From an uncultured Actinomycetes bacterium (lineage in GTDB: Bacteria > Actinomycetota > Thermoleophilia > Gaiellales > JAICJC01): a DNA stretch of 64,000 nt. The stretch lies in the NCBI GenBank assembly GCA_963729195.1, contig CAVSNF010000004.1:25958-89957 (forward strand), in the 5' to 3' direction. Below the pieces are notes generated by a model. It worked only from the letters and a program-made list of their open reading frames with translations, ran no database searches and was not told the DNA's origin. This document shows, one piece after another, positions 336 to 61,219 of this stretch. Each line of letters starts with the position of its first letter. Within the stretch, counting starts at the first letter, position 1. The position numbers were made by a program, and so were the translations under genes.

Positions 336-3144
336 TGCAGGTCGCCCTCCGCGGGTTGTGGGGCCGCAAGCTGCGCACTGTCCTGACGGCGCTTTCGATC
401 ATCCTGGGCACGTCCATGATCACCGGCACCTTCATCCTCCGCGATCAGATCAACAACGCCTTCTCGAGCATCTTCCACGAAGGCAACCAGGGCATCGACG
501 TGGTGCTCTCCAAGAAGACCGCCTTCACGTCGGACAACGGTGCGGTGCCGGGGCCGCTGCCCGAGCGGTGATCGCGACCGCGGCCGGCGTCGACGGCGTG
601 AAGAAAGCCGAGGGGCAGATCCAGGCCACCGGTTCGATCGTGGTGGACGGCAAGTACGTGACCGGCAGCGGCGGCGCGCCGAACCTGGTGTTCTCGTACG
701 TGACCGAGCCGTTCTCGAACTCTCAGTTCACCAGCGGCGGGCCGCCCACCGAGGGCTCGGTTGCCGTCAACCAGAAGCTCGCCAACGACGAGCATCTGAA
801 GGTCGGCCAACAGCTCCAGATCGCCACCGACAAGGGCGTGGTGGCTGCCAGGTTGTCCGGCATCTTCAAGCTGTCGGGGGTGTCGTCGATCGGCGGCGCG
901 ACCCTGGTGGTGCCGACCTTCAAGGACGCTCAGCGCTGGTTCGACCGTATCGGCAGAACGTCGGTGGTGTATCTCCAGGCCGAGCCGGGAGTGACACCCA
1001 CCGAGCTGAAAAAGCGCGTGGTGGCGGCGGTGCCGAGCGATGTCAAGGTGCAGACCGGCGAGCAGAACGCCGACGAGCAGACCCAAAACGTCGAGAGCTC
1101 CACCAGCTTCATCACCTATGCCTTGCTGGCGTTTGCCGGCGCAGCGGTGTTCGTCGGCCTCTTCATCATCTTCAACACCTTCTCGATCACCGTCGCCCAG
1201 CGCATCAGGGAGTTCGCCATGCTGCGCACCCTGGGCGCCAGCCGCCGGCAGGTGCTGCGATCGGTGCTGATCGAGGCCGGCCTGATGGGGCTGGTGGCGT
1301 CGGTGCTCGGAATCGGACTGGGCGTCCTGCTCGCCATCGGCCTCAACGCGCTCTTCAAGGCGATCGGTGTCGATCTGCCCACAGCTCCGATCTCGATCCC
1401 GCTGGTCAACGCGGTGCTGCTGCCGCTGGCAGTCGGCGTGGGCGCCGCGCTGATCGCATCGATAGCCCCCGCGATCCGCGCGACCAGGGTTCCGCCGATC
1501 GCCGCGCTGCGCGAAGGGTTCGTGCTGCCGCCGGGCCGGCTGGCGCCGTATGTGCCCTACATCGGGCTGGCCACAGCCCTGCTCGGAGTTGGGCTGATCG
1601 CCTATGCGATCAGTGCCGGCGGCGGCGGCAGCCGGGTGCTCTTGACGATGGCTGCGGGGGCGGTCATCGCGTTCCTCGGGGTCGCGATGCTCTCGCGGAT
1701 CCTGATCACGCCGATGGCGGCGGTGCTGGGAATCGGCCTGCAGGGTCTGCTCTGGTTCTGGCGGCTGCTGGGCCGGTTGCGAGACAAGGTGCCTCTGCTG
1801 GGTCGCTTCGTCCGCTGGCTCGGGTATGTGCTCACCCTGGGGTGCGTATGGATCGGCATCATCACGATCGTGGTGATGGCGATCATTCTGATCAGCTCGG
1901 GCGCGAGCGCTGGTGGTGCGGTGGGGGCACTGGTGGTGCTCGCCATCGGGGGAGCGCTGACGGTGTTTCTGTGGATTCGACGGCCGCGGGATTGGCCGTG
2001 GGATCCCGCTTCGCCGACGGCAGGGCGCCTGGCCCGCGAGAACACCGCCCGCAACCCCGGTCGCACGGCGGTGACCTCCGCCGCACTCATGATCGGGGTG
2101 GCGCTGATCGTGTTCGTGGCGACCTTCGTGAACGGCTTCAAGGACTCGTTCCTGGGCGCGATCGATCGATCGATCACAAGCGATTTGATCATCCAGGGCC
2201 AGAACTTCGGATCAGTCCCCGCAGCTGCCGTGGAGGCCGCCAATCAGGTGCCGGGGGTGAAGACCGCCTCGGGCCTGCAGTTCACCGAGGCAAAGATCAA
2301 CAATGGCGGCACGGACGTCGTCAACGGCGTCGATCCGGCGTCTTTCTCGCAGGTGTACAAGTTCGACTGGCTGAACGGCGGCTCAAACAGCCAGCTGACC
2401 AACCTGGGGTCGGATCAAGCGCTGATCGAGGAGCAGTTCGCCAAGTCCCACGACCTGTCGACGGGCGACTCGTTCACGCTCACCGGAATCGACGGCAACA
2501 AGCTCCACCTGGAAGTCGCCGGCGAGTACAAGGACCCCAATCTGATGACCGGCCTGATCATCCCGTCGACCACGTTCGACAAGTTCGCCCCCGGCAACAA
2601 GGATCCGGGGATCGTGCTGGTCGAGTTCGACCAAGGCCCTCAGGGCGACCACGCCAAACAGGCGATCACCCAGGCGCTCAAGTCGTTCCCCGGCGCCAAG
2701 GTGCAGACCAACGCCGAGTACAAGGCCGACGCTGAGAGCTTCGTCAACGGCCTTCTGCAACTCCTCTATGTCCTGCTCGCCATGTGCCTGATCATCTCGC
2801 TGATCGGCATCGTCAACACGCTTGCCCTCTCGGTGTTCGAGCGCACCCGCGAGATCGGCACCCTGCGGGCTGTCGGGATGACCCGCCGCCAGCTGCGCCG
2901 CGTGATCCGCTACGAGTCGACGATCACCGCCATCATCGGCGGAGTGTTCGGGATCGCTGTGGGGCTGCTGTTCGGGTGGATCGTCGCCCGGGGCCTGGCC
3001 GACCAGGGCCTGGTGTTCGTGGTGCCCTACACCCAGCTCTTCTGGTTCTTCGTCGTCGCCACCGTGTTCGGTGTGCTGGCGGCGATCCTGCCCGCCCGCC
3101 GAGCCGCCAAGCTGAACGTGCTCGACGCCCTCCAGTACGAGTAG
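332..3144 (+). CDS. ABC transporter permease, MacB/FtsX type with two FtsX halves; apparent frameshift near 565
   Basis: ORF 332..571 ([26 protein letters not shown]...) continues in the frame of ORF 208..3144 (VIATAAGVDGVKK...). Two FtsX-like TM blocks (LRTLGASRRQVL and LRAVGMTRRQLR). Start overlaps the upstream ATPase stop. Confidence 0.8.
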
Positions 3145-3175
3145 GTGAATAACGGTGCCTGGCACCGTTATTCAC
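3145..3175. repeat. Palindromic element copy 1: GTGAATAACGGTGCC-T-GGCACCGTTATTCAC (perfect 15-1-15)
   Basis: Read directly. Begins the base after the permease TAG stop (3142-3144). Same sequence recurs at 8 other positions. Confidence 0.95.
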
Positions 3176-4244: not shown

Positions 4245-6675
4245 TTACAGGTAGTTGTGCTGGGTGAGCCAGCGCATGGCGAAGAATCCCCACAGCGGCG
4301 GCAGATAGAACGTGCACACGCGGTAGATCAGCGCCGTTGCCAGCGCCGCCTCCTCCGACATGCCCGCGCCGGTCAGCCCCACCGTGAGCCCAAACTCGGT
4401 CACGCCGATGCCGCCGGGCACCGGGATGAAGCTCGCAAACAGTGACACGCTGAGGTTGATCACCAGCAGGTCGGCGAGCGAGATGTCGGCTCCGAGTCCG
4501 CGCGCGATGCATCCCAGCGCGATCGCAAACAGCACCTCGGTGGCGAGGTTGCCGCCCATCAGCATCGCCAGCTTGTGCGAGCCGCGCAGCGACGAGAGGG
4601 TCGTTCGCACCTGCGGCCACCACTTGTGCACGCGGCTCGTGATCTGCCGCCGCAGTCGGGGCACCAGGGTGAATACGAGGATGTTGATGACCGCCAGCGC
4701 GACCAGGATGAACAGCAGCTTTTTGGCGCCTTCGGTGGGGATGTTGAAGTCGACCGACACGTCGGATTGCGAGAAGATCAGCAGCAGCACCAGCAGAATC
4801 GCCTGCAGCACGTTGCCGGCGAAGGAGTCGATCGCGCCGGAGGTGACGGCTGAGGCCGGCGGCACGCCCAGCCGCTGGAAGAAGCGGATGTTCACGGCCA
4901 TGCGGGCGAAGTTGGACGGCAACGCCAGGTTCATGTAGCTGGTCGCCAGCTGCATCGCGTACACCGGCCCGAACGGGAGCTCGGCGGCCACCGAGCCCAT
5001 GGTCGAAAGCGATTGGGTCAGGCGCGGGGTCTGGGCGATCACAAAGCCCAGCGCGATCCACGCCCAGGTGGCATCCTGCAGGCTCTCGCGCAGCTGATCC
5101 ACGTCGACCCCGCTGACCGCCCCGATCACGGTGGTGGTGGCAAGCACCAACAGCGCCAGCTGGATCATCGACCCCCACGTCACTCGCCGCAGCTTGGCCA
5201 GCTGCGGCGGCTCGGCCCCCGCCAACTCGGTCGCGTCCTGCCGCAGCTTGTTGAGATCGACCTCCGCAGTCTTCAGCTGACGGCGCAGCGTCGTCCCGAT
5301 GGCGGCGGCCTGGAGATAGGGCAGCAGAGTGGTGATGCCGTCGGCACCGAGCGACTGGTGGGCTGCCTGCAACGCCCGCTCGGGGGTGGTCAGAGCGGCT
5401 GTGGTCGCGAGCAGGCGGGCATGGTCGGTCGCGATCTGCTCCTCCGAAGGGCGCCACGCTGGCCGCCTCGAAGTCGATCAGCCCGACCACGCCGTCGCGC
5501 ACGACCACGGTGCGGGGGCCGATGCGAACGTGAGCGATGCTCGCCCGGCCGAGCATGCTCACCGTCTGCCAGCACTCGCGCAGCAGTCCGTCGTCCAGCT
5601 CCTCGGCAGACAGATCACCGATGGGGCGACCGTTGCCGCGCAGTACCAGCAGCGCATCGTCATAGCCCGACGACCCCGCCGTCACCACCTGGCGGGTGGG
5701 CACGCCGGCGTTCTCGGCCAGCAGCGTGACGAAGGCCTCGTGCTCCACCGCCTGGGAACGGCTCGCCCGCAACCCGGGGCCAGAATCGCGGTACCACAGG
5801 GTGCGCCACAACTTCTCGACCAACTGGTTGTCGTAGGCGTCGCGGCCGTACACCTTGACCACCAGCGGCATGCCGTCGGGATCACGCCCACGGGCCACGA
5901 ACGCTCCGGTGTCGCCGCGATCGACCCGCTCCAGGTCGCTCGCCGGGACGCCCAGCTGCTTGAGCCCGTCCGACACCTCGTCCAGCTCGGGGTAGCCGGC
6001 CGACGTGCCGAACGCGAGCCGGATCGCGGTGGCAGCGATGACCGCAATCAGCAGTGCCGCCACGGTGCCGCCGGGGTTGACGTTGTCGGCGAAGAACGCA
6101 GACAACGCCCCGAGCAAAAACAGCCAGCGGGTCAGCCGCTGCAGCGGGCGAGTCAGGTGAGGCGAGATCGCGAGCACCACCACCGCGCTTTGCACCACCC
6201 GCACCGCCGGCAGGTTCTTGCCGCTGAACTCGCCACCGATGACCGCGCTCAGCTCCGGCCAGCTGCCGGATGCGATCCGCGAGACGACGAACGCGAGCAC
6301 CACCGCCAGTGCCAGCGAGGCCAGCGCCTGGCCGAGCACGATCCGCCTGCGACGGGCCAGCGCGGTGATCACGAGGATCACCGCCCACAGCGTCAGCAGG
6401 TCGAAGAAGAACGCCCACACCGGATCGAGGAACGACGGTGCGCTACTGAGAAACGTGGCCAGCGGGGTGGACGCGTCGCCTACCGGGAACGCGATCACGA
6501 TCGCCGCCAGAGCGATCACCGACGGCGCCAGCAGCAGCACGTCGGATGCCCGGCGGGACCGTGGCTGTCCCGGCGACGAGGAGTACACGCGGATTCCGTG
6601 CCGGAATACTCCAGGGGTTACCAGAACACCGCGCGGTGCGCGTGCGGGGTCGGCAGAGCCGGCCTGGTCGGTCAT
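4245..6675 (-). CDS. Fusion membrane protein: N-terminal TM region + protein-kinase-like domain + C-terminal UPF0104 (flippase-like) domain; apparent frameshift near 5455
   Basis: ORF 4090..6675 N-terminal 400 aa (TM helices, then ...PLVVKVYGRDAYDNQLVEKLW...GLIDFEAAS) joins ORF 4245..5372 (UPF0104-like TM domain). The alternative frame at the junction reads ...SEEQIATDHARLLATT... without a stop. Confidence 0.65.
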
Positions 6676-8015: not shown

Positions 8016-8088
8016 TGGGCGCAACAGGGCTCGAACCTGTGACCTTCCGCGCGTGAAGCGGACGCTCTCCCAGCTGAGCTATGCGCCC
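8016..8088 (-). tRNA. tRNA-Val (anticodon CAC)
   Basis: Reverse complement GGGCGCATAGCTCAGCTGGGAGAGCGTCCGCTTCACGCGCGGAAGGTCACAGGTTCGAGCCCTGTTGCGCCCA folds as a 73-nt cloverleaf. Anticodon loop is TTCACGC. CCA is not encoded. Confidence 0.93.
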
Positions 8089-15629: not shown

Positions 15630-17052
15630 ATGGGCATCACTCCGCGAGTCGGCGAAGAGGTCACGCTCAAGCTCCCCGGCACCGACCACCGCGTCGTGAT
15701 CGTGGGATCGGGCTTCGGCGGGCTGTTCGCGGCGACGGTTCCTGCGCGGCGCGTCGATCGAGGTGACGCTGATCGATCGCACCAACCACCATCTGTTCCA
15801 GCCGCTCTTGTACCAGGTCGCCACCGGCATCCTGTCGGGCGGAGCGATCGCACCGGCGACCCGCGATGTCTTCCGAAACCACAAGAACATCGAGGTCGAG
15901 ATGGGTGATGTGACCGCCTTTGACCTGGACGCCAAGCGGGTCACGGCCACCCGCCCCGACGGGCGCGTGGTCGTGCACGAGTACGACAGCCTGATCGTGA
16001 GCGCCGGTGCCGGCGGCTCGTACTTCGGGCACGACGAGTTCGCCGAGTTCGCGCCCGGCATGAAGACGCTGGCCGACGCGCTCGATCAGCGCGCCCGCAT
16101 CTTTGGCGCGTTCGAGATGGCCGAGCTCGAGGAGGATCCCACGCGCCGCGCCGAGTGGCTGACATTCGTGGTGGTCGGCGGCGGCCCCACAGGAGTCGAG
16201 ATCGCCGGGCAGATCGCCGAGCTCTCACGCCGCGCCCTCAAGAACAACTTCCAAAACTTCAACCCCAAGACCGACGTCCGGGTGCTGCTGTTCGACGGCG
16301 GCAAGGAGGTGCTGTCCACCTTCGGCGACAAGCTGTCGGGGATCGGCCGCAAGGAGCTGGAGGCCACCGGCGTGGAGGTGCACACAGAGTCGATCGTGAC
16401 GCACGTGGACGGCGATCACGTCGAAGTCAAAGGCCCGAACGGCTCGGTCGATCGGTACGCCGCCAAGACCAAGATCTGGGCGGCCGGGGTGGCGGCGTCA
16501 CCGCTGGCCAAGGCGCTGGCCGACGCGGCCGGGGCCGAGTGCGACCGCAGCGGCCGGATCAAGGTGCAGCCGGACTGTTCGGTGCCCGGCTACCCCGAGG
16601 TGTTTGCAGTCGGCGACATGATGAACTTCGAGGACCTGCCCGGAGTGGCCGAGGTGGCGATGCAGTCGGGCATCCATGCCGCCCGCACGATCAAACGGCG
16701 AGTGGCAAACAACGCCGAGCCGCAGCCGTTTGTCTACCGCGACCTCGGCACCATGGCCGCCATCTCGCGCCGACGGGCGATCGTGAGCTTCCGGGGCAGG
16801 CACTTCTCCGGGTGGTTCGGCTGGCTGATGTGGATGTTCGTGCACCTGACCTTCATGACCGGTTTCCGCGGGCGGTTCGCGGCCGCCTGGTCGTGGTTCT
16901 TCAGCTTCGTCGGCCACCGACGCGGCCAGCGAGCGCTGACGATCACCAGGATCGGCGACGCCCCGGCCGACACGCCCGACTCAGCACCGCCCGACGACCC
17001 CGGCGACGACGAAGAATCCCCCACCGAGGCGCCAACAAAAGACCTTGAATAA
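15630..17052 (+). CDS. ndh: Type II NADH dehydrogenase (NDH-2); apparent frameshift near 15733
   Basis: HRVVIVGSGFGGLFAA (ORF 15630..15908) joins ...IEVTLIDRTNHHLFQPLLYQVATG... (ORF 15763..17052). Second dinucleotide fold VVVGGGPTGVEIAG. TAA stop 17050-17052 lies inside palindrome copy 2. Confidence 0.87.
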
Positions 17053-17074
17053 CGGTGCCTGGCACCGTTATTCA
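17046..17074. repeat. Palindromic element copy 2: TGAATAACGGTGCC-T-GGCACCGTTATTCA
   Basis: Read directly. Contains the TAA stop of ndh (+, 17050-17052) and the TAA stop of the convergent DUF1801 gene (-, 17068-17070). Confidence 0.95.
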
Positions 17075-17421
17075 TCCGGGTAGCGCTCGAAGGATTCGAG
17101 CCAGCATTTGCGGATGATGGTGCGCAGCACGGACTCGTCGATGTCGGACAGGCGCTTGATGTAGAGGCAGGCCTTGCCGGTGGAGTGCTGGCCGAGCCGG
17201 GCGAGCAGCCGGTCGTAGTCGTCCGGCTGAAACATCGCGTAGACGGTGAGATTGCGTGCCCGATCGGCGAATCCGATGCGCATGGCGTCGCCCTCGCGGC
17301 CCGAGGCATACACGTAGTGGTAGCTGCCGAAGCCGACCATTCCACCGCGCCACTCGGCCGGTTGCACGCCGGTCTCCTGGCGCATGATCTGCTCCAGCCG
17401 CCGGGCGTCCTCGCTGCTCAT
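17068..17421 (-). CDS. DUF1801 (YdhG-like) domain protein
   Basis: [13 protein letters not shown]...[33 protein letters not shown]...[18 protein letters not shown]... ATG 17421 overlaps the pgi TGA (ATGA). It is fused to pgi in ORF 17068..19053 only because of the pgi frameshift. Confidence 0.68.
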
Positions 17422-19053
17422 CTGAGCGATCGGTAACGCCGGATCAGGGCGTTGGTGGAGCTGTCGTGATCCAGCTCCGGCTCGGTCTGGCTGAGCAGCT
17501 CGGGCACGATCCGCTTGGCCAGCACCTTGCCCAGCTCCACGCCCCACTGGTCGAACGAGTCGATCCCCCACACCGTCCCCTGGGTGAACACGCTGTGCTC
17601 GTACAGCGCAATCAGCGTCCCCAGCGAGTGAGGGCGTCAGCTCTTCCACCAGGATCACGTTGGTCGGCCGGTTTCCCTGCATCACCCGGTGGGGGATGAC
17701 GTTCTCGGCAGTGCCCTCGGCCCGCACCTCGTCCTCGGTCTTGCCAAAGGCCAGCGCCTCGGCCTGGGCAAACACGTTCGACATCAGGATGTCGTGATGC
17801 TCGCCCAGCGGGTTGTGGGTCTTGCCAAACCCGATCAGGTCGACCGGGATCAGGGCCGTCCCCTGGTGGATCAGCTGGTAGAAGCTGTGCTGGCCGTTCG
17901 TCCCGGGCTCACCCCAGTAGACCGCGCCGGTGTCGTAGTCGACCTGCCGCCCATCCAGCGTCACGTGCTTGCCGTTGGACTCCATCGTCAGCTGCTGGAG
18001 GTATGCCGGGAATCGCTTCAGATACTGGTTGTAGGGCATCACTCCAACCGTCTGGGCGCCGAAGAAGTCCCGATACCACACCGCCAGAAGGCCCATCAAC
18101 ACCGGCAGGTTTCGCTCGAACGGCGCGGTGCGGAAGTGCTCGTCCATCGCGTGGAAGCCGTCCAGCAGCGCCCGGAAATTGTCGGGCCCGACCGCGATCA
18201 TGGTCGAGAGTCCGATCGCCGAGTCCATCGAGTAGCGCCCGCCGACCCAGTCCCAGAAGCCGAACATGTTTTGGGTGTCGATCCCGAACTCGGCCACGCC
18301 GGCGGCGTTGGTGGAGACCGCCACGAAGTGCTTGGCCACCGCCTGCTCGTCGCCCAGTGCGGCCAGCGACCACTCCCGCGCCGAGTGGGCATTGGTCATC
18401 GTCTCGAGCGTGGTGAACGTCTTGGAGGACACGATGAACAGCGTCTCGTCCGCGTTCAGGTCACGGGTGGCCTCGGCGAAGTCGGTGGAGTCCACGTTGG
18501 ACACAAACCGGAAGGTGAGCTCCCGCCGGCTGTAGTGCCGCAGCGCCTCATAGGCCATCACCGGGCCCAGGTCGGATCCGCCGATGCCGATGTTGACCAC
18601 GTTTCGGATCGGCTTGCCGGTGTGTCCGCGCCACTCGCCCGATCGCACCCGCTGGGCGAACGCCGCCATGCGGTCAAGCACCTGGTGCACCTCGGCGACC
18701 ACGTCCACACCGTCGACTGTCAAGCTGGCCGAGCGCGGCAGCCGAAGCGCCGTGTGCAGCACCGAGCGGTTCTCGGACACGTTGATGCGGTCGCCCCGAA
18801 ACATCGCGTCGATGTGTTGGCGCAGGCCGGATTGCTCGGCGAGTGCGACCAGCAGCGGCACCGTGTCTGCGGTGATCCGGTTCTTGGAATAGTCCAGGTA
18901 GAGGCCCACGGCCTCGGCTGTCAGCCGCTCACCGCGGTCGGCATCGGCCGCAAACAGCTCGCGCAGGTGCTGCCCCGAGATCTGCTCGTGGTGGCGCTCG
19001 AGCGTCTTCCAGGCAGGTCGGTCGCGCAGCGGAGTCGGTACTTCGTCAGCCAT
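17418..19053 (-). CDS. pgi: Glucose-6-phosphate isomerase; apparent 1-nt insertion near 17631
   Basis: N-terminal 470 aa of ORF 17068..19053 is canonical PGI (...[11 protein letters not shown]..., ...[19 protein letters not shown]...). After ...LVEELTP the shifted frame reads [34 protein letters not shown]...RRYRSLR*. Confidence 0.9.
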
Positions 19054-26964: not shown

Positions 26965-27054
26965 CGGAGAGGGCGGGATTCGAACCCGCGAACGAGGAAA
27001 CCCCCGTTACGCGATTTCCAGTCGCGCTCCTTAAGCCAACTCGGACACCTCTCC
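26965..27054 (-). tRNA. tRNA-Ser (anticodon GGA)
   Basis: Reverse complement GGAGAGGTGTCCGAGTTGGCTTAAGGAGCGCGACTGGAAATCGCGTAACGGGGGTTTCCTCGTTCGCGGGTTCGAATCCCGCCCTCTCCG. It is 90 nt with a long variable arm. Anticodon loop is CTGGAAA. Confidence 0.93.
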
Positions 27055-27584: not shown

Positions 27585-27865
27585 ATGGCCCGCGACCGTG
27601 CTAAGCGGGGAGCTAGCGGTACCCTGTTTCCGGCAAGCCGCTCTAGCCGGGCCGAATTCCCACCCGAGGGGTGAAGGGTTCGGGAACGGGTTCGTGCGTT
27701 CGGTGTTGATCGCCAGGTCCCGCGCAACGGAGGCTTGCGAACCGCGTCAGGTCCGGAAGGAAGCAGCGCTAAGCAACGTCATCCGGGTGCCGCGGGCTAG
27801 CCTGGCAGGAGCCTGCGCCACGAGCACCACCCGAGTCCACCGCCACAGAGGTGGGTGCACGGTCA
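27585..27865 (+). ncRNA. ffs: Signal recognition particle RNA, long (Alu-domain-containing, Bacillus-type) form; ends +/- 10 nt
   Basis: Domain IV motif GTCAGGTCCGGAAGGAAGCAGC at about 27746-27767. The 5' part GTGCTAAGCGGGGAGCTAGCGGTACCCTGT...GCCGCTCTAGCCGGGCCGAAT closely resembles the B. subtilis scRNA Alu domain as I recall it. Terminal pairing GACCGTGC/GCACGGTC. Classic position just upstream of dnaX. Confidence 0.8.
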
Positions 27866-29883: not shown

Positions 29884-30476
29884 GTGTACGCACCGTCAGT
29901 TGACAACCTGATCACCCAGCTCGCGCGGCTGCCCGGGATCGGCCAGCGGAGTGCCCAGAGGCTGGCGTTTCACCTGCTCAAAGCGACTCCCGAGGAGGCG
30001 GGCGCGCTGGCCGCAGCGATCACCGAGGTGAAGGAGCGGATCGGCTTCTGCGAGCGCTGCTACAACCTGGCCGAGGGGCCGCTGTGCACGATCTGCGCGG
30101 ACACCCGGCGCGACGTGTCCCTGATCTGCGTGGTCGAGGATCCCTCGGATGTGATCGCGCTGGAACGCACGCACGAGTACCGCGGCACCTATCACGTGCT
30201 GGGCGGGGCGCTGTCACCGATCGACGGCGTCGATCCCGACCACCTGCGCATCGCCGAGCTGATGGCTCGGATCGAGAGCTGGCCAGCGTGACCGAGGTGC
30301 TGCTGGCCACCAACCCCACCATGACCGGCGAGGCGACCGCCAACTACATCGCCGACCGGCTGCGCGACCGCACCACCGTCACCCGGCTGGCCAGCGGCCT
30401 GCCGGTCGGCGGCGACCTGGAGTACGCCGACGAGGTCACCCTCGGCCGAGCACTCCAAGGCCGCCGCGCGATCTGA
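29884..30476 (+). CDS. recR: Recombination protein RecR; apparent frameshift near 30277
   Basis: ...[20 protein letters not shown]..., C4 zinc finger [16 protein letters not shown], Toprim ...[17 protein letters not shown]... The C-terminus continues in ORF 30084..30476 (...[22 protein letters not shown]...). TGA stop lies inside palindrome copy 3. Confidence 0.9.
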
Positions 30477-30503
30477 ATAACGGTGCCAGGCACCGTTATT
30501 CAC
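30474..30503. repeat. Palindromic element copy 3: TGAATAACGGTGCC-A-GGCACCGTTATTCAC
   Basis: Read directly. Its first three bases are the recR TGA stop. Confidence 0.95.
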
Positions 30504-30516
30504 CACCGGCGCCCGC

Positions 30517-30549
30517 GTGAATAATCGGTGCCAGGCACCAATTATTCAC
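30517..30549. repeat. Palindromic element copy 4, variant form: GTGAATAATCGGTGCC-A-GGCACCAATTATTCAC (one C/A mismatch)
   Basis: Read directly, 13 nt after copy 3. Contains the TGA stop (30546-30548, minus strand) of gene 30546..31159. Confidence 0.92.
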
Positions 30550-31159
30550 GAGCAGTTGGCGCGCAGGTACTGTCGAACGAGCGTGAAGTCGCCGCGATGG
30601 GCGGCAGCGATCTCGCGGTCGGTCGCCCGCAGCGAGCTCTGGTCGTAGCCGCCGGCATCCTCGGACGCGCCGGCGGGGTGCAGCGGCATCATCCGCCGCA
30701 GCGTCAACGCCTCGGCGTATGAACTCCGACACGGCCGCGTCGTTGCCTGCGGCAGCAGCCGAATTCCAGTGCGCATACCACGCGCACTGCGCCTGGCCGA
30801 TGGCCGCGATCAGCGCGAACTGCTGCCCGTAGAGCGCGTGCGGCCGGCAGGTGCAGCGGCCTCCAGTGCGCACCCGGCGGCAGATCGATCGTCTTGGTGA
30901 TCGCGGCGAACTGGCGGTTCACGGTGGGTGCGTGGTCGTCGCCGGGAATCGAGGAGTACACGGTGGCAGCACCGGCCAGCACGGCAACGGCAACGGTCGC
31001 GGCCAGCAGCAGCGGCCGGCGGCGTCGCCGAGAACTCGTCCGCGAAACTGCCGAGCGGAGAATCCGGTCGCGCATCGCGGCGGCATCGGCGGACGGCAGC
31101 GGTCGCAGCTGGGTGGCGGGATCGTGCCGCCGGATGAGGGTGATGACGTCGTCAGGCAT
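30546..31159 (-). CDS. Hypothetical membrane protein downstream of an ECF sigma factor (anti-sigma candidate); two apparent frameshifts (about 30721, 30840)
   Basis: MPDDVITLIRRHDPATQ...RRRRRPLLLAATVAVAVLAGAATVY (one TM) / ...YGQQFALIAAIGQAQCAWYAHWNSAAAAGNDAAVSEF / YAEALTLRRMMPLHPAG...DFTLVRQYLRANCS*. The start overlaps the sigma-factor stop (ATGCCTGA). Confidence 0.4.
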
Positions 31160-31687
31160 CGGTTCCAAGACCTCCATGGGCAATCACGCGTGTGTTGGCA
31201 ACCGGCGGCGCGTCTGCCTCGGCAAGTTCGTGCGCCAGCCGGCGGCGGGCGCGCCTCAGCCGCACCGCCACGTTGGCGCGGGTACAGCCGATCACGACCG
31301 CGATCGCGTCACGGTCGAGCCGATCCCACGCGGTCAGCAGCAGCACCTCGCGGTCGCGCTCGCCGAGCCGTCCCAGCGCCGTCCAGAGCGCGTCGCGCTC
31401 ACCGACCTGATGGGTGGGATCGGGCGTCGTCACCGGTTCGCGCACCAGCCGACGGGTGAGCTGGTCGCGGCGGCGATCGCCGCGGCGCTGATTCAGCCGG
31501 ATCTTGCGAGCCACGCCGATCAGCCACGGCAGCGGCTCGGCGGGGATGTCGTCCAGCCGCCGCCATGCCACCAGAAACGTCTCGGCGGTGACGTCGTCTG
31601 CGAGCTCGGGGTCGCGGCGCCACAGGTAGGCGCGCACGGCCTCGCGGTGCGTGTCGAACAGTTGCTCGAACCATGCTTCTCGTTGGT
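31152..31687 (-). CDS. ECF-type RNA polymerase sigma-70 family factor
   Basis: TTG start 31687 preceded by GGAGGA. ...FEQLFDTHREAVRAYLWRR...DDVTAETFLVAWRRLDDIP... (region 2) and ...REVLLLTAWDRLDRDAIAVVIGCTRANVAVRLRRARRRL (region 4). Confidence 0.85.
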
Positions 31688-35477: not shown

Positions 35478-35927
35478 ATGCAGCATCGACGCGGCACCCT
35501 GTGCCCCGTGTGCCTGGGGGAGGTACGACGGGGCGTATGTGATCACCACGGCCTGTGGTCTCCCCGCCAGCTCCTGACGATGCTCGACCGCCGCCACGCG
35601 ATCCGGCATACGTGGCATCCGTTCACCCCGATCCTCCACGCCTGTCCCCGCTGCCTGGGCGAGGTGGCTGAGAGCCGCTCCGGCGACTACGGCTGCATCG
35701 ACCACGACGGGCATGGGCCGTTCCAGCTGGACGAGCTGCTCGGCCCGAGCGCCCAGCGCGACGGCGCCATCGAGCGCGAACGGCTCGCGCGGGCACGCGA
35801 GCGCAAGCGAGACGCCGCCCCAACCGTGACTCTGCCCAAGCTCCACATCCCCAACCTCACGCACGTGACCCGCATCGCCGCCGCCGGTGCGGTGATCGTC
35901 ACGACCCTCTTCTTCCTCGCAAGGTGA
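35478..35927 (+). CDS. Hypothetical protein with duplicated CPxCLGEV zinc-ribbon-like motif and C-terminal TM helix
   Basis: MQHRRGTLCPVCLGEVRRGVCDHHG... and ...HACPRCLGEVAESRSGDYGCIDHDGHG...; the tail IAAAGAVIVTTLFFLAR is hydrophobic. TGA stop lies 3 nt before palindrome copy 5. Confidence 0.5.
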   Translation: MQHRRGTLCPVCLGEVRRGVCDHHGLWSPRQLLTMLDRRHAIRHTWHPFTPILHACPRCLGEVAESRSGDYGCIDHDGHGPFQLDELLGPSAQRDGAIERERLARARERKRDAAPTVTLPKLHIPNLTHVTRIAAAGAVIVTTLFFLAR

Positions 35928-35930
35928 CGG

Positions 35931-35961
35931 GTGAATAACGGTGCCAGGCACCGTTATTCAC
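35931..35961. repeat. Palindromic element copy 5: GTGAATAACGGTGCC-A-GGCACCGTTATTCAC
   Basis: Read directly, between convergent gene ends (TGA 35925-35927 on +, TAG 35962-35964 on -). Confidence 0.95.
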
Positions 35962-36646
35962 CTAGGCAACCTTGGTGGCGGCGATCGGCTGGGTGGTGGG
36001 CTGCTGTGAGCCGCCGGCCGGCTCCACGGTGACAGCGACGGTGTCGCCGGGATGGGCTTTGGTTTCGAGGTCGACGCTGGTGCGACCGCCGGCGAACACT
36101 CCCGCTGAGATCGGTTTTCCGCCTGGAGGAATCACCCAGGCCTGATAGGTCTTGCCGCTGGGAGCCGCGGACGCGTTCGCGACCAGGGTGGCTTGGCCGT
36201 CGGCGTCGACGAACACTGTGCCGACGTGCGGAAGCGCGGCGCTGGTCTGGCTGCCATAGACGATGTCCTGGGTGTTGGTGAGCGAGTTGCGGAGAGAGAC
36301 GTTCCAGGCCACCAACCCGATCACGACAACCGCCAGCACCGGAGCGGCGATCCGCGCAAACCGCGGCCACCAGCCGGGTGAGCGGTCGGAACGACGCTCG
36401 GCTGGTGCCTCGGGCTGAGGCACCGGCGGCGGGCTCAATCGCGGCCATCAGTCGGTCGCGCAACTCGGGCGGCGGCGCCACCTCGGGGGTGGCCAGCGCC
36501 AGCAGCGCGGTGGTCGACTCGGCCTCGCGCAGGCGAGCCATGCAGGCAGAGCACTCGGACACGTGCGATTCGACCTGCGCAGCCTCCTCCGGCGTGAGTG
36601 CTCCCAGCACGTGGGCGGGAATCAGCTCGTCGACGTGGTCGTCCAC
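35962..36646 (-). CDS. rskA: Anti-sigma-K factor RskA-like (zf-HC2 N-terminus + RskA C-terminal domain); apparent frameshift near 36435
   Basis: N-terminus ...LGALTPEEAAQVESHVSECSACMARLRE... (ORF 35954..36646) joins ...PGWWPRFARIAAPVLAVVVIGLVAWNV...GKTYQAWVIPPGGKPISAGVF... (ORF 35962..36438). Confidence 0.8.
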
Positions 36647-41068: not shown

Positions 41069-43232
41069 GGATCACCACGCTTCGCCTGCACGGGTTCGGG
41101 CGGTTCCGCGAGCGGGAATTCGAGTTTGGGCCCGGCCTCACGATCGTGCACGGGCCGAACGAGGCCGGCAAGTCGACTCTGCACGCGGCGCTGTCTGCAT
41201 CCACCTTCGGGCTCGCTCCCAGCGGTCGCCGGCTGGCCAAGCACACCGCGGTGATCGAGCGTCACCGACCTTGGCAGAGCGACCGCTACGCCGCCACGGT
41301 CGAGCTCGAGCACAGCAGCGGGCGCCGCCTGCGGATCGATTGGGACTACGATCGGCAACAGTTTGCCGTGATCGATTCGGCGACCGGCGACGACCTCTCA
41401 TCCGCGCACGGTGCCGGCACCAACACCGACGTTCTGGCCGAGACGCTGCACGGCGTCGGGCGCGACGTGTACCTGCGGGTGGGGTCGATCGGTCAGGACG
41501 AGCTGGCCCAGATCGTGACCGGTGCGACCGACGTGCGCGAGGCGATCGAGCGCGCCGCCGGCCAGTCCCAGTCGGATTCGAGCAGCCAGACTGCGGTCGA
41601 CCGCCTGCGGGCGCGCCGCAAGCAGCTGGTCGGCCTCAACCGCAAACCAGAGCAACCCGCTGCCTCGCGCGGAGGCACAGGTCGCCGAGCTTCGAGCACA
41701 GCTCTCCGACGCCGTCGGCACCCGAGCCGAGGCCGAACAGCTGTCGGCCGAACGCGATCAGGCCGCCGAGCAGGCCGGCGCACTCGAGCGCCGCATCCGC
41801 GAGCTCGAGTTCGCGCTCGAAGGGGCGCGCTGGCGATCGCTGCAGGCCACCGTCAACCGAGCCGAGGGGCTCAATCGCGAGCTGCAGGCGGCCACCGCCG
41901 CAGTGCAAGGGTCGGTGGCGCTGGCGGAGTTCGCCCCGATCCCCGGGGTTGCCGGAGCGCGGGAACGATACGAGCATCTGATGGCGGAGCGCGACCGCAC
42001 CCGCCCGCGCCAGGCGGCGGTCGCAGGGAAGTTGGAGGAGCTGCGAATCCCCGCGGTCGAGTCCTGCCAACGCTCCCGGACCGTCTCGGGCCGGCTGGGC
42101 GGTTGCCGCCGTGGGGGCGGTGGCCGCGGCCGTAGGCCTGGTGCTCTCGACGCTGCTGGTGGTGTTGGGTGTGCTGGTGCTGGTGGCCGGAGTTGCGGCG
42201 GCGACCGTCACCCGCCGAGCCTACGATGCCCGCCGCGAAGCGGCCCGCGAGCAGCGCGACCGTGAGGCTGCCGATCGCCGCGATCGCGCAAAAGGTCTCG
42301 AGATCGAGTTGGCCAAGATCGCAACTGTTGACGCTGAGTACGAGGCCACCGCCGAGCGTCTGGCCGAGATGCTCGAGAGCGACGACACAAGCCCCCAGGG
42401 GATCTCCCAGGCGCTGGCCACCTACGACGAGCATGTGCGGGCCCACACGTCCAGGATCGATGCCGAGCGTCGCCGCAAGCAGGCCGAGGCCGAACTCGAC
42501 ACGCTGCTCAACGGTGGCAGCCTGGAACAGGTGCAGCAGCGCTGCGCCGAGCTGGAGCGGTCACTCAACGGGCACCGCAACGCGGCCGGTGCAGAACGCG
42601 ACCCCGACGACATCGAGGCGGAGCTTCACCGGCTGCGGTCGTCGGCCCGGCAGACTGCAGTCGACGCGAGCGGCCTGCGAGCCACCGCCGCCGAACGGCT
42701 GCGGCTGGTACCGGACACGGGGGCGCTGCAGGAGCAGCTGGATGCGGCCGAGGACGAGCTGACCCGCCTGCAGCGGCTGGAAGGCGTGCTGAAGCTGGCC
42801 GAGAACGAGCTGCAGGAGACGGTGGCGGAGACGTACCGCGACTTCGCCCCGCGGCTGAACGCTGCGCTCGAGCGAAACCTGGTGCGAGCCACGGGCGGCC
42901 GCTACAGCAGGGCGTTCGTGGCCGACGACCTGTCGGTGCGCCTGGAAGCCCCCGAGACCGGTGCGGTAATCGACCTGGCGCAGGTCTCAGCCGGCACCCA
43001 ACGGCTGGTGTACCTGATGCAGCGACTCGAGCTGGTGCAGCTGATCGCCCCCAGCAGCGAACCGCTGCCGGTGCTGCTGGACGAGCCGTTCGCCCATCTC
43101 GACCGAGAACGTATGCGCGCGGCACTGGAGGTGCTGACCGACCTGGCCGGCGACCGCCAGATCGTCGTCTTCACCACCCAGCGCGACGCCGCCGAACTCG
43201 CCCCCGACTCCACCACCCTGCTCGAGTTGTGA
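41065..43232 (+). CDS. SbcC/YhaN-like AAA ATPase with coiled-coil and central hydrophobic segment; two apparent frameshifts (about 41648, 42075)
   Basis: Walker A HGPNEAGKSTL. Long Ala/Glu/Arg coiled-coil. Hydrophobic AVAAVGAVAAAVGLVLSTLLVVLGVLVLVAGVAAA. C-terminal SAGTQRLVYL signature and PVLLDEPFAHLD Walker B. TGA stop lies inside palindrome copy 6. Confidence 0.75.
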
Positions 43233-43259
43233 ATAACGGTGCCAGGCACCGTTATTCAC
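43229..43259. repeat. Palindromic element copy 6: GTGAATAACGGTGCC-A-GGCACCGTTATTCAC
   Basis: Read directly. Bases 43230-43232 are the TGA stop of the SbcC-like gene. Confidence 0.95.
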
Positions 43260-43274
43260 CACCGACGATCGCGA

Positions 43275-43306
43275 GTGAATAATCGGTGCCTGGCACCAAT
43301 TATTCA
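43275..43306. repeat. Palindromic element copy 7, variant form: GTGAATAATCGGTGCC-T-GGCACCAATTATTCA
   Basis: Read directly, 15 nt after copy 6. Carries the same C/A arm mismatch as variant copy 4. Confidence 0.92.
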
Positions 43307-43329
43307 AGCGCCAAGTCAACCGTCAGCTG

Positions 43330-43429
43330 CAAGGATCGAGCGAGCGGGCGGAGCGGAGGCGTGGCAAAGCCACGTTGAGCACCGCACCGCCGCGTGGGAC
43401 GCCGCCAGAACCGGCGCGGACCAGCCTCA
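43330..43429. repeat. Second repeat family, copy A (78-nt conserved core 43330-43407 + variable 13 nt + conserved CCAGCCTCA containing the recQ stop)
   Basis: Manual alignment to 61122-61198 gives 3 substitutions and 1 single-base indel. Contains an imperfect long hairpin GGGCGGAGCGGAGGCGTGGC-AAA-GCCACGTTGAGCACCGCACCGCC. Confidence 0.85.
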
Positions 43430-55721: not shown

Positions 55722-56216
55722 ATGACGATCCGCGACCGCATCAATGGGCAACTGGTGGTTCTGGCCCCGCTCAACGTCGCGGACGCCCCCGCCTGGGCGC
55801 GCTGGCTGAACGATCCCGACACGACCCGCTACCTGTACGGCAGGCGGGGCGCCCCCGAGGAGCAGCCCACCGTCGACCAGATGCTCGAGTGGGGGCGGCG
55901 GATGCTGGCCGACCCGTGGCGGATGGCCGTGGGGCTGGAGGTACGAGGCGGCGGCACGGTGATCGGAAACGCACGCCTGACCCCGCACGGGCCGCGCCGG
56001 GCGCGGTTCTCGATCGTGATCGGCGAGGCCGAGCATCGCGGCCGCGGCATCGGCACCGAGGCCACCCGGATGATGGCCCAGCTCGGATTCGAGCGGCTCG
56101 ACCTGCGCGAGATCGTGCTGGACGTCGACCCCCGCAACGAAGCCGGCCGGCGCGCCTACCTGACCGCCGGCTTCACCCCCGGCCGCGGCGACTCCATGAC
56201 CCTCCGCCGTGAATAA
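55722..56216 (+). CDS. GNAT family N-acetyltransferase (RimJ/RimL-like)
   Basis: MTIRDRINGQLVVLAPLNVADAPAWARWLNDPDTTRYL...IGEAEHRGRGIGTEATRMMAQLGFERLDLREIVLDVDPRNEAGRRAYLTAGF... TAA stop lies inside palindrome copy 8. Confidence 0.8.
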   Translation: MTIRDRINGQLVVLAPLNVADAPAWARWLNDPDTTRYLYGRRGAPEEQPTVDQMLEWGRRMLADPWRMAVGLEVRGGGTVIGNARLTPHGPRRARFSIVIGEAEHRGRGIGTEATRMMAQLGFERLDLREIVLDVDPRNEAGRRAYLTAGFTPGRGDSMTLRRE

Positions 56217-56239
56217 CGGTGCCAGGCACCGTTATTCAC
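56209..56239. repeat. Palindromic element copy 8: GTGAATAACGGTGCC-A-GGCACCGTTATTCAC
   Basis: Read directly, between the GNAT stop (56214-56216, inside) and the reconstructed citrate synthase stop (56241-56243). Confidence 0.95.
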
Positions 56240-56240
56240 C

Positions 56241-57381: not shown

Positions 57382-57489
57382 GCGCGACCCTCCGCCGTGT
57401 CCTTGAGTGCTCTTGCGACTTCGACCCAATCCTAGCGTTCGTGCAAGAATCGCCCGGCCAGCCACCCTCAACCTTGTGGGAGTTTTCAC

Positions 57490-59526: not shown

Positions 59527-61041
59527 ATGAATCGATCGGCCCGACTGAAGCAGCTGGCGGGCCAATCGTTCGTGTACGGCCTCGGCGGGCTGGTCTCGCG
59601 GGCTGTCGGGATCGTGCTTCTGCCGGTGTATTTCCGGCACGTCTCGCGCGTCCAGTTCGGCGATGTCGAGCTGATCATGTCGACCATCACGCTGGCGGCG
59701 ATCGTCTTTCGGTTGGGTCTGACGAACGCGATGTTCCGCTTCTCGTTCGATAACCCGGGCGACGGAAACCGCGAGAAGACGGTGCAGACCACGTTCACCT
59801 CGGTGATGATCCTATCCACCCTGGCGGTGATCCTGGGCCTGATCTTCCTCGATCCCCTGGCTCACGTTCTGGGCGGCCGGGCGCTCACGATCATCGGCCT
59901 GACCGGCCTTTGGGTGACGATGAACTTCGACATCGTCACCGGCATCTACCGGATCGAGCGGCGGCCCACCGCGTTCGTCGTGTACTCGCTGACGAACGTC
60001 GCAATCACGGTGGTGATGACGGTGCTTCTGGTGGTGCATTGGCACCACGAGGCCGCCGGGCTGATGATCGGCAACTTCTCCGGCACCTACGTCACCTACT
60101 TCCTGATGCTGATCGCCCGCCGCGACGTGATTGGGTTTCGGCTGTTCAATCGTGAGCTGTTACGCCGGATGCTGCACTTCTCGGTGCCCCTGATCCCCGC
60201 CGGCCTGGCCCTGTGGGCGCTGAACGTCGCCGATCGCTTCCAGGTCAAGTACCTGGGCTCGCCGGCGCTTCTAGGCTCGTACTCGGCGGCCTCCAAGATC
60301 GCGCTTTCGATCATGCTGCTGATCGCGGCGTTCCAGACCGCCTGGCCGGCCTTCGCCAACTCGATGCCGTCGGAGGACGAGACCCGCAAGGTGTATGCGG
60401 TGGTGCTGACGTACTGGTCGATGGTGATGGCCTGGGCGGTGGTGGCGATCAGCCTGGCGACCCCGACGTATGTGCACGTGGCGCTGCCCAAGTCGGTGTG
60501 GGACGCAGCGCCGGTGGTGCCGCTGCTGATGTTCGGGTCGGTGCTGTTCGGCGCCTACCTGATTCTCAACGCCGGGGTCAACCGCTCCAAGAAGACTCGC
60601 TTCACGCCGGTGGTGGCGACCACCGCGGCGCTCGTCAACGTCGGCATCAACTTCGCGCTGATCCCGTGGATCGGTATCGTCGGCGCAGGCGTCTCGACCG
60701 TGATCGGGTATGTGGTGCTGGTCTACCTGGGCTGGCGCAACGCCCAGCACTCCTACCCGGTGGATTACGAATGGAGCCGGGTGATCCGTACGGCCCTGGT
60801 AGCCGCGGCGTTCGTCCTGCTGTCGATGCTGGTGATTCCCGCCACCGGCTGGGTGGGAGTGCCGCTGCGGATCATCCTCGCGGTGCTCTTCCCGGTCGGA
60901 TTGGTGGCGACCGGAGTGGTTCACCGGGGCGAGGTCGGCCGGGTGCGCGACAACCTCAAGGCGATGGGCAAGCGCCGCAGCAAGGCAGCCGTGCTCGAAG
61001 CCGAAGAAGAGGAAGCGATCGAGGAAGAGCCCGTCGCCTGA
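59527..61041 (+). CDS. Polysaccharide/oligosaccharide flippase (Wzx/MOP superfamily) membrane protein
   Basis: Intact 504-aa ORF with about 12-14 TM helices and an acidic C-terminal tail. TGA stop lies inside palindrome copy 9. Confidence 0.78.
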   Translation: MNRSARLKQLAGQSFVYGLGGLVSRAVGIVLLPVYFRHVSRVQFGDVELIMSTITLAAIVFRLGLTNAMFRFSFDNPGDGNREKTVQTTFTSVMILSTLAVILGLIFLDPLAHVLGGRALTIIGLTGLWVTMNFDIVTGIYRIERRPTAFVVYSLTNVAITVVMTVLLVVHWHHEAAGLMIGNFSGTYVTYFLMLIARRDVIGFRLFNRELLRRMLHFSVPLIPAGLALWALNVADRFQVKYLGSPALLGSYSAASKIALSIMLLIAAFQTAWPAFANSMPSEDETRKVYAVVLTYWSMVMAWAVVAISLATPTYVHVALPKSVWDAAPVVPLLMFGSVLFGAYLILNAGVNRSKKTRFTPVVATTAALVNVGINFALIPWIGIVGAGVSTVIGYVVLVYLGWRNAQHSYPVDYEWSRVIRTALVAAAFVLLSMLVIPATGWVGVPLRIILAVLFPVGLVATGVVHRGEVGRVRDNLKAMGKRRSKAAVLEAEEEEAIEEEPVA

Positions 61042-61068
61042 ATAACGGTGCCAGGCACCGTTATTCAC
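61039..61068. repeat. Palindromic element copy 9: TGAATAACGGTGCC-A-GGCACCGTTATTCAC
   Basis: Read directly. Its first three bases are the flippase TGA stop. Confidence 0.95.
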
Positions 61069-61093
61069 CGAACGTCGATGTACGACTGACGCC

Positions 61094-61114
61094 CTGAGGC
61101 GAAGGCCGCCTCAG
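61094..61114. other. Perfect 8-bp hairpin CTGAGGCG-AAGGC-CGCCTCAG between palindrome copy 9 and repeat-B copy
   Basis: Read directly. It occupies the position held by the variant palindrome at the 43275 locus. Confidence 0.5.
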
Positions 61115-61121
61115 TCTGTGG

Positions 61122-61219
61122 CAAGGATCGAGCGGCGGGCGGAGCGGAGGCGTGGTAAAGCCACATGGAGCACCGCACCGCCGCGTGGGACGCCGCCACG
61201 GGCCCAACGGCCAGCCTCA
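61122..61219. repeat. Second repeat family, copy B (77-nt core 61122-61198 + variable 12 nt + CCAGCCTCA containing the rsgA stop)
   Basis: See copy A. Same order and orientation relative to the palindrome and to the convergent minus-strand gene. Confidence 0.85.

Follow-up and report, generated by a model that had tools for sequence, protein, structure and literature searches.

How can one copy of a short palindrome come to end two convergent genes at once? The question is raised by a 64,000-nt stretch of DNA from an uncultured Actinomycetes bacterium (Thermoleophilia; Gaiellales; contig CAVSNF010000004.1, positions 25,958 to 89,957 of the forward strand), hereafter called the window, meaning the whole stretch analyzed, with a G+C content of 66-71%. 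At positions 17046-17074 it carries TGAATAACGGTGCCTGGCACCGTTATTCA, a perfect palindrome with 14-nt arms and a single central base, and the stop codons of ndh and of a convergent DUF1801 gene both reside within it. A sequence-only reading of this DNA, which had noticed the overlap, offered two explanations: either the element inserts at or into stop codons and can rewrite C-termini, or selection has compacted stop and terminator together. Of the two, the second fits our results better, given the small indels in the stop-to-element spacers and the doublet and singlet states found at the focal site; the terminator function itself we infer. We postulate, with a probability of roughly 0.55, that the palindrome, one copy of a high-copy family of perfect palindromic repeats, acts as a compact bidirectional 3'-end hairpin whose overlap with stop codons arose by compaction.

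A palindromic family with stop codons in both arms

The exact 29-mer TGAATAACGGTGCCWGGCACCGTTATTCA (W, A or T) occurs seven times in the window, with start positions 3146, 17046, 30474, 35932, 43230, 56210 and 61039, as compared with 0.00 copies expected from 100 shuffles. Two 31-nt variants (TGAATAATCGGTGCCWGGCACCAATTATTCA), at 30518-30548 and 43276-43306, each lie 15-17 nt downstream of a 29-nt copy. When one genome per GTDB species was scanned, at least 65 loci with the exact 29-mer (L001-L065) were obtained among the matches listed, and all listed matches come from four related Microflora-Danica-type nanopore metagenome-assembled genomes (MAGs; a clade of uncultured soil Actinomycetes, species-level). 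Parts of two of these four MAGs match the window at 92-95% identity, which makes its source a further relative.

The window and the 65 loci together hold ~130 family copies with a common box and core. The family consists of an outer box (TGAATAA/TTATTCA), a self-complementary linker of 1-2 nt and an invariant core (GGTGCC-W-GGCACC), and its linkers are of four types, A (C/G), B (TT/AA), C (AT/AT) and D (AA/TT), with some asymmetric hybrids. When 26 distinct variants are aligned, covariation shows in the linker columns (score 0.162 versus 0.071 in shuffles, with 0 of 500 shuffles reaching it). The extended consensus of type A is GGTGAATAACGGTGCCWGGCACCGTTATTCACC, i.e., GGTGAATAAC...GTTATTCACC; the flanks are a symmetric GG...CC and are not conserved further out. 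The central base is A or T in 129 of 131 copies, both being equally common, and it flips between orthologues. Outside full copies, the heptamer TGAATAA/TTATTCA is found 19 times in 578 kb, mostly in decayed or near-perfect copies. We counted 120 copies in ~580 kb and 9 in the 64-kb window, a density that is biased, the loci having been picked for type A.

On each strand the element reads TGA at its positions 1-3 and TAA at positions 5-7, just as the sequence-only reading had stated for TGAATAA in two different frames, and the third frame is open throughout (NNGARHRYS). Because the A/T-rich outer box offers TGA and TAA on both strands, an open reading frame (ORF) entering in two of the three frames ends in the element. 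To see how genes use these codons we called coding sequence (CDS) ends strictly, requiring a stop-free 240-nt window, sense-like GC1 > GC2, high GC3 and the best of six frames; 120 copies (the window and the 65 loci of the four MAGs) gave 101 incoming CDS ends, with frames that are inferred from codon-position GC in nanopore assemblies carrying indel errors. The stop lies inside the element in 48 of the 101 (30 TGA, 18 TAA), at most 7 nt upstream in 15 and 8-46 nt upstream in 36, and in the remaining 2 the gene reads through in the open frame. The use of element stops seen at ndh and DUF1801, both of whose stops fall in 17046-17074, extends beyond the window. A looser coding test (78 of 144 stops inside) was replaced, since it counted as incoming genes some antisense frames, which look coding-like in GC-rich DNA.

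Among the stops that adjoin the element TAG prevails (9 of 15, versus a background of 29% by our own count), typically as TAG-G-TGAATAA, in which the last base of TAG doubles as the initial G of the extended palindrome. TAG is the sole stop that the element cannot supply; in the strict set, the difference in stop-codon usage between element-near genes and background is just a trend. Where both sides were callable, the surrounding genes are convergent in 20 cases, co-directional in 20 and divergent in 5, a bias to 3' ends that is not exclusive. Coding sequence is nearly free of copies: only 2-4 are read through by an ORF, and these rare read-throughs add element-encoded tails to the proteins.

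The copies of the window, with the gene ends at them, are listed below (gene names checked by Pfam; coding frames from codon-position GC).

3146..3174, type A copy: an FtsX/MacB permease gene arrives in the third (open) frame; its TAG, 3142-3144, lies 1 nt upstream.
17046..17074, type A, the focal copy, TGAATAA-C-GGTGCC-T-GGCACC-G-TTATTCA: ndh TAA 17050-17052 (plus strand) and DUF1801 TAA 17068-17070 (minus strand), both inside.
30474..30502, type A copy, left half of a doublet: the recR TGA, 30474-30476, is formed by the first three bases of the copy.
30518..30548, type B-like copy, TGAATAA-TC-GGTGCC-A-GGCACC-AA-TTATTCA: right unit of the same doublet, after a 15-nt spacer; TGA of an anti-sigma-like gene at 30546-30548 (minus strand).
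35932..35960, type A copy between convergent genes: TGA of a plus-strand gene at 35925-35927, 4 nt before the copy, and TAG of an RskA_C gene at 35962-35964, 1 nt after it.
43230..43258, type A copy, left half of a doublet: TGA of an SbcC/AAA-like gene at 43230-43232, inside.
43276..43306, type B-like copy, right unit of that doublet, after a 17-nt spacer: no gene end inside; a second repeat family comes next.
56210..56238, type A copy: GNAT TAA 56214-56216 inside (...LRRE*); the TGA of a convergent citrate synthase gene, 56241-56243, abuts the extended palindrome after frameshift correction.
61039..61067, type A copy: TGA of a Polysacc_synt (flippase-like) gene at 61039-61041, inside; the second repeat family comes next.

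All 11 stop positions named in the sequence-only reading, seven inside copies and four nearby, are correct. It had placed the nearby ones within 0-3 nt of a copy; by our count the distance is 1-4 nt, and the citrate synthase stop requires the frameshift correction, the ORF as assembled ending at the element's own TGA (56236-56238). At the 3146 copy, the TAG of the FtsX/MacB gene lends its G as the first G of the extended palindrome GGTGAATAA, and an LPG_synthase_TM gene starts downstream, at 3215, on the same strand. The anti-sigma-like gene is frameshifted and has an ECF sigma gene upstream. The SbcC assignment scores under the Pfam cut-off, and the gene with the stop at 35925-35927, earlier called zinc-ribbon, has no Pfam match.

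Some observations on the sequence of the copies and of the window stand apart. Tandem duplications of 10-11 nt of the 3' arm are present in L018 (~1983) and L019 (~5929), reading CCATTTATTCA CCATTTATTCA and CCGTTATTCA CCGTTATTCA, and are either hairpin slippage or assembly artefacts. A CCWGG restriction-modification system was considered as the cause of the W centre and ruled out, CCWGG not being avoided in the genome. GGACC/GGTCC are depleted ~3.4-fold (199/196 observed versus 663/693 expected under a Markov model, in the window and L001-L065, with CCWGG at expectation), which suggests a GGWCC-specific restriction-modification system in the lineage. The window also contains a signal recognition particle RNA (Bacteria_large_SRP, 175 bits) at 27596-27862, upstream of recR and of ORFs read as putative dnaX and ybaB, and two tRNA genes, at 8016-8088 and 26965-27054.

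C-termini at orthologous gene ends

If the element had rewritten C-termini on insertion, as one of the two earlier explanations supposed, orthologous proteins would be expected to differ in where they end. In most orthologue sets the stop position is kept, and 0-3 C-terminal residues differ (recR, DUF1801, GNAT and five more). RecR ends in ...GRRAI* in three genomes, its stop being the element TGA in the window, a TAG 1 nt before the element in L020 and a TGA 4 nt before it in L007. The anti-sigma-like protein reads LRANCS* in the window and LRANCE* in L020, both through the element TGA, and LRANC* through its own TGA in L007. A LuxR-like gene uses the element TGA in L064, and L045, with no element at that site, has a native TGA at the same codon; the "...SAYAAM" gene stops at the element TGA in L058, and in L054 at a TAA directly followed by the element. 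The gene at 35925, whose own TGA precedes the element by 4 nt in the window, is 3 residues longer in L008, running into the element TGA. RYPDE* is the end of DUF1801 in the window clade; two relatives without the element have RYPES* and RYPAS*, with the stop at the same codon, and GNAT ends in ...MTLRRE* versus ...MRLRAG* in its nearest homologue (67%), at equal length.

The part of the remodelling claim that stands is a small one. Since the terminal Glu of frame-b genes is encoded by the element (GGT GAA TAA), as already suspected from the GAA-TAA ends of three proteins, a replacement of one or two residues is real, and over the set at most the last 1-3 residues are replaced; the stop positions are mostly kept, and larger rewriting was not seen. 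Such an alignment, with the same stop position in most cases and 0-3 residues differing, is the outcome that had been named in advance as speaking against insertion-driven remodelling. Among close relatives, the spacer between stop and element shows small indels: 0, 1 or 4 nt in recR, and 1 nt (window) versus 9 nt (L008) in the RskA gene. Target-site duplications, which had been suggested as a check, flank none of the copies at any boundary: across 117 copies, direct repeats of 2-5 nt are no more frequent than expected, whichever boundary between -7 and +3 is taken.

The same data bear on the possibility that a non-autonomous mobile hairpin, akin to REP/REPIN sequences and moved by a Y1/HUH enzyme of the RAYT type or similar, prefers stop codons as its target and brings its own stop, so that the overlap would be a matter of target choice. 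The lack of duplications is what HUH-type single-strand insertion predicts, many copies are identical, the doublets resemble REPINs, and stops fall inside copies ~5 times as often as they would if spread evenly over the adjacent 40 nt. Moreover, an unrelated second repeat family (see below) has a TGA in its terminal stem in 4 of 4 copies. Empty sites exist in distant relatives (L049 versus L031, L024 versus L025, L045 versus L064), and at L045/L064 the element TGA falls exactly on the native TGA; however, these are not simple insertions, the entire spacer being different, and the spacer-length differences among close relatives show directly that stop and element converged after insertion. Between genomes 89-95% identical, no copy has been gained or lost in ~40 kb, bar doublet/singlet changes and one variable segment. 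A search for an asymmetric motif in the flanks of the copies, as a conserved target would leave, found none, and GTAG/CTAC is not conserved either. Finally, a phmmer search with IS200 TnpA against ORFs of at least 70 aa in the window and 66 loci (~600 kb, ~3% of the genomes; a single-sequence search of low sensitivity) returned no IS200/RAYT-like ORF below E = 1. Given this balance, we regard target choice by a mobile hairpin as rather unlikely.

Doublets and their probable collapse at the focal junction

Compaction would account for a merged stop at a single gene; how two genes came to share one copy is indicated by the focal junction itself. In 15 doublets a type A unit is joined with one that is of type B or B-like, and in one more with a type D unit; the units stand at a fixed distance of 15-18 nt, with a loosely conserved spacer, and 13 of the 18 perfect type B copies, as well as both B-like copies of the window, sit in doublets. 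The DUF1801/ndh junction has identical flanks in four related assemblies (...CCGGATGAATAA on one side and TTATTCAAGGTC... on the other), which diverge pairwise by 6-9%. In L096 and L097 it consists of a B unit, 16 nt and an A unit, DUF1801 ending in B and ndh in A; L094 has a lone B unit common to both genes, and the window has a lone A unit common to both. As far as these sequences tell, the shared focal copy is probably a collapsed doublet, the simplest history being an ancestral doublet and two deletions between the units, with A kept in one lineage and B in the other. Collapse would also account for the switches between A and B elsewhere among orthologous sites, and for the asymmetric hybrids, which recombination between units is expected to yield. 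Because the focal site alternates between a doublet, a B singlet and an A singlet, one copy ending two genes may be seen as the end state of compaction.

Protein-based searches added little here: an Ndh-based metagenome scan gave 26 loci of at most 71% identity, none with the element and none with a downstream DUF1801, and is uninformative for this junction. The C-terminal tails of Ndh are too variable for alignment, and an exact-protein lookup with the Ndh of the window found no record.

At a second doublet, after recR, the A and B units are separated by a 15-nt spacer in the window (30503-30517), and the same interval in relatives holds ~450 nt with one small membrane-protein gene and decayed copies in one (L007 5727-6180) and ~750 nt with apparently two small genes in the other (L020 3917-4675). 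The post-recR interval is a variable segment bounded by the repeats. Synteny breaks at or within ~14 nt of element edges in L006 (~6880) and L056 (~2072), and in L045 (~6144) and L064 (~7498), and in L054 (2560-2760) a 22-nt gene 3' end, GGTCAGCGCCTACGCCGCGATG, is duplicated, each time in front of a different unit. The repeats seem to serve as points of recombination.

Distribution of the element

As the listed matches all derive from nanopore MAGs, the pattern could in principle be an artefact of nanopore assembly and polishing, or of chance. Indel errors are indeed obvious, in the relatives as in the window. Frameshifts split or fuse several housekeeping genes: recR (29884-30476), PGI and DUF1801 (fusion 17068-19053), the anti-sigma-like gene (30546-31183) and the citrate synthase C-terminus (56236-57400); because in L094 PGI is intact (544 aa) and DUF1801 stands as a gene of its own, these are probably assembly indels, not pseudogenes. 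Such frameshifts affect every frame-based reading close to the elements. The element as such is another matter: zero copies are expected by chance, it is present at orthologous sites in at least seven independent assemblies, and it stands out by peaks of depth, flanked by many different sequences, in Illumina metagenomes of soil as well as in metatranscriptomes of soil and plants. These depth spikes are 50-1170 high (summed contig word depth; window 17016-17103 and 56190-56261, runs X1-X3, X19 and X24). These spikes with many flanks mark the element as real and abundant, and an artefact or chance is refuted; the repeat, or its lineage, is widespread in soils and present in RNA libraries.

Elsewhere the element was not met. 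A BLAST search of PLSDB plasmids with the 33-mer and an exact-pattern scan of IMG/VR viral contigs gave no match. Rfam has no family for it (whole window at the gathering threshold; 43200-43500 at E <= 1), only sub-threshold chance miRNA matches being returned, and a literature search with sequence strings found nothing relevant.

A proposed hairpin at RNA 3' ends

Transcribed from either strand, the element is predicted to fold into a stem of 13-15 bp with a GC-rich top (CGGUGCC/GGCACCG) and a 3-nt loop (-24.4 kcal/mol, z = -8.5). The GC-rich top has UUAUUCA behind it and the complement of that heptamer ahead of it, as a bidirectional terminator would. Behind the GC core stands the tail TTATTCAC, which has T at 4 of 8 positions and pairs with the A-rich arm, and so falls short of a U-tract (at least 5 T in the 8 nt after the stem); a terminator scan called no copy in 26-45 kb. 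Canonical terminators show no excess in this DNA, 3 being found versus 5.4 expected.

On the basis of this predicted structure, the hairpin probably ends transcription, perhaps with the help of a factor, and/or stops 3' exonucleases. We propose the following course of events. A copy transcribed either way would fold into the 13-15 bp hairpin with its GC-rich top and A/U-rich base, followed by UUAUUCA, and would act at RNA 3' ends in a genome that lacks intrinsic terminators of the canonical kind. Small indels and substitutions in the spacer would bring native stop and element together, merging being the limit state, beyond which more deletion would harm either protein or element. Where a doublet loses the DNA between its units, two convergent genes would come to share one copy, and C-termini would be altered by 0-3 residues only. 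With the stop inside the stem, a terminating ribosome would have to melt the hairpin. Liang, Rudd and Deutscher reportedly found in 2015 that E. coli REPs within ~15 nt of a stop stall ribosomes and lower expression.

Several findings weigh against this proposal. RNA-derived contigs run through the element, so that termination, if any, is incomplete, or else the libraries contain contaminating DNA. The RNA tail UUAUUCAC, with 4 U in 8, is below the canonical U-tract criterion. Frame use is uneven (45 a, 35 b, 21 c), which would not follow from spacer erosion alone. Divergent gene starts flank five copies, and the context of one of them, found at L064 7456-7484 and L045 6102-6130, is hard to reconcile with a terminator. 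Box and core do not vary across genomes that are only 73-95% identical in DNA, a constraint that exceeds the needs of a hairpin and suggests a protein partner or a copy mechanism. Additionally, the linker covariation of a DNA palindrome is equally compatible with an RNA hairpin, a DNA cruciform and copying between the arms, and the imperfect copies are too few for the asymmetry of G-U versus C-A mismatches, which separates RNA from DNA roles, to inform the choice. At the L064/L045 copy just named, the start codons lie ~15-20 nt from each arm, and the right flank holds a TANNNT-like -10 sequence (TATCAT).

The strict conservation of box and core across species, with the W-only centre (129/131), also leads to the idea that the palindrome is mainly a binding site in duplex DNA, recognized by a dimeric protein (a nucleoid protein, a regulator, a DNA-uptake receptor or, as at BIMEs, gyrase), and that gene ends are merely the places where it is tolerated. 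The fixed centre-to-centre distance in doublets, the copies between divergent promoters, and the synteny breakpoints and variable segments at element edges would all agree with such a site. However, the four linkers, each self-complementary and 1 or 2 nt long, shift the boxes relative to the core, which a hairpin accommodates better than a rigid dimer site does; moreover, the copies show a strong bias to 3' ends and to positions within a few nt of stops, and uptake sequences are not near-absent from coding sequence as these copies are. No candidate binding protein was identified. A DNA site as the chief role of the palindrome therefore seems distinctly improbable to us.

A second repeat family at the same junctions

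A second repeat family of ~115-130 nt (...GCAAGGATCGAGCGGCGGGCGGAGCGGAGGCGTGGCAAAGCCACGTTGAGCACCGCACCGCCGCGTGGGACGCCGCC...CCAGCCTCAG) adjoins palindromes at window 43320-43430 and 61076-61220, at L036 ~1380-1560 and, on the reverse strand, at L041 ~5220-5420; a short form is present at L007 ~6205-6250, and the family has no Rfam match. Its end CCAGCCTCAG bears the minus-strand stop (C-TGA-GGCTGG) of the convergent gene, in the window copies a RecQ-like gene (stop 43427-43429) and an RsgA GTPase gene (stop 61217-61219). Since all four copies (two in the window; L036 and L041 by manual frame reading) carry the TGA of the convergent gene there, this family likewise puts a stop in its terminal stem.

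One may speculate that the element and this unrelated family are both stop-codon-homing hairpins, either by insertion aimed at stops or through a dedicated protein that reads the TGAATAA/GGTGCC duplex and couples translation termination to 3'-end formation. We consider this quite doubtful. If true, its dedicated-protein version would be a sequence-specific terminator system that depends on a factor, an idea once raised for TRIT, the Tuberculosis Rho-independent terminator.

Significance

Compact 3'-end hairpins of the kind we propose touch on a wider matter. GC-rich actinobacteria, including mycobacteria, are mostly without canonical terminators, and how their transcripts end is still debated. 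Here a clade marks about one-fifth of its gene ends with one invariant palindrome whose arms double as stops. It offers a natural system for asking whether stop-codon hairpins terminate transcription, stabilize mRNA or tune translation termination, and for following how repeats and stops merge and how doublets collapse into copies shared by convergent genes. In practice, the element causes false fusions and extensions in the annotation of nanopore MAGs, recognizable by tails such as (V)NNGAWHRYS or MNNWCLAPIIH, and it could mark the lineage in soil metagenomes.

Comparison with known systems

The nearest functional counterpart is TRIT, of which 147 palindromic, mostly bidirectional copies are known in M. 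tuberculosis, placed "largely within the coding sequence, around -8" relative to the stop (Gardner et al., 2011; PMC3152330). TRIT is reported to be restricted to Mycobacterium, and no doublets are reported (PMC3152330); by Term-seq, TRITs overlap mapped 3' ends little. Both it and our element are multi-copy, conserved and mostly bidirectional palindromic hairpins set tightly to the stop codons of many genes, in GC-rich actinobacterial hosts poor in canonical terminators, and a protein partner is suspected for both. We compared one TRIT copy, that of the convergent rpoC/Rv0669c junction of M. tuberculosis (RNIE/TRIT-annotated, reached via Table S3 of the Term-seq preprint of D'Halluin). Unlike our element, this site is a 61-nt hairpin, GGCGAGCAGACGCAGAATCGCA...TGCGATTCTGCGTCTGCTCGCC, of unrelated sequence, and the TAG of rpoC stands 3 nt before the stem, not within a conserved arm. 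The motif of the M. tuberculosis rpoC end is absent from the 94 other loci searched, a set outside which the window lay. Judged from these sequences, the likeness to TRIT is functional and positional, not homology.

With the REP/BIME/REPIN sequences the element shares a short extragenic palindrome present in hundreds of copies, mostly after genes and between convergent genes; stem variants differing by a base or two; doublets of unlike types with fixed short linkers; the lack of target-site duplications; and a position at points of recombination and rearrangement. It differs in being a perfect palindrome with a one-base centre where theirs are imperfect, in lacking their GTAG-type 5' tetranucleotide, and in that their RAYT was not found here in the ~3% of the genomes covered by our single-sequence, low-sensitivity search. 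Moreover, its stops are built into the conserved arm and used by about half of the adjacent genes, and its host is an actinomycete, not a proteobacterium. Of the marks of a canonical intrinsic terminator it has the GC-rich stem-loop and not the U-tract, and it has none of the target-site duplication of a DDE-transposon MITE (miniature inverted-repeat transposable element).

Species-specific repeats that form terminator-like inverted repeats after genes are also known as inverted pairs of the Neisseria DNA uptake sequence, as Correia elements and as pairs of the Haemophilus uptake signal sequence. Uptake sequences are frequent inside coding regions too, whereas our element is almost never in coding DNA. 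Correia elements can supply or shift stops and act on transcript ends; they are longer, at ~100-150 bp, and have TA duplications, in contrast to the element. The MIRUs of Mycobacterium, as reportedly described by Supply et al. in 1997, lie between genes and with their ends overlap the stop codon and the start codon of their neighbours. MIRUs are tandem direct repeats of 46-101 bp within operons and contain small ORFs; they resemble the element in overlapping stop codons in a GC-rich actinobacterium, and are unlike it in not being palindromes at convergent 3' ends. Collectively, the element is a new sequence family with an uncommon trait, stops built into its conserved arms, within the known class of 3'-end palindromic repeats.

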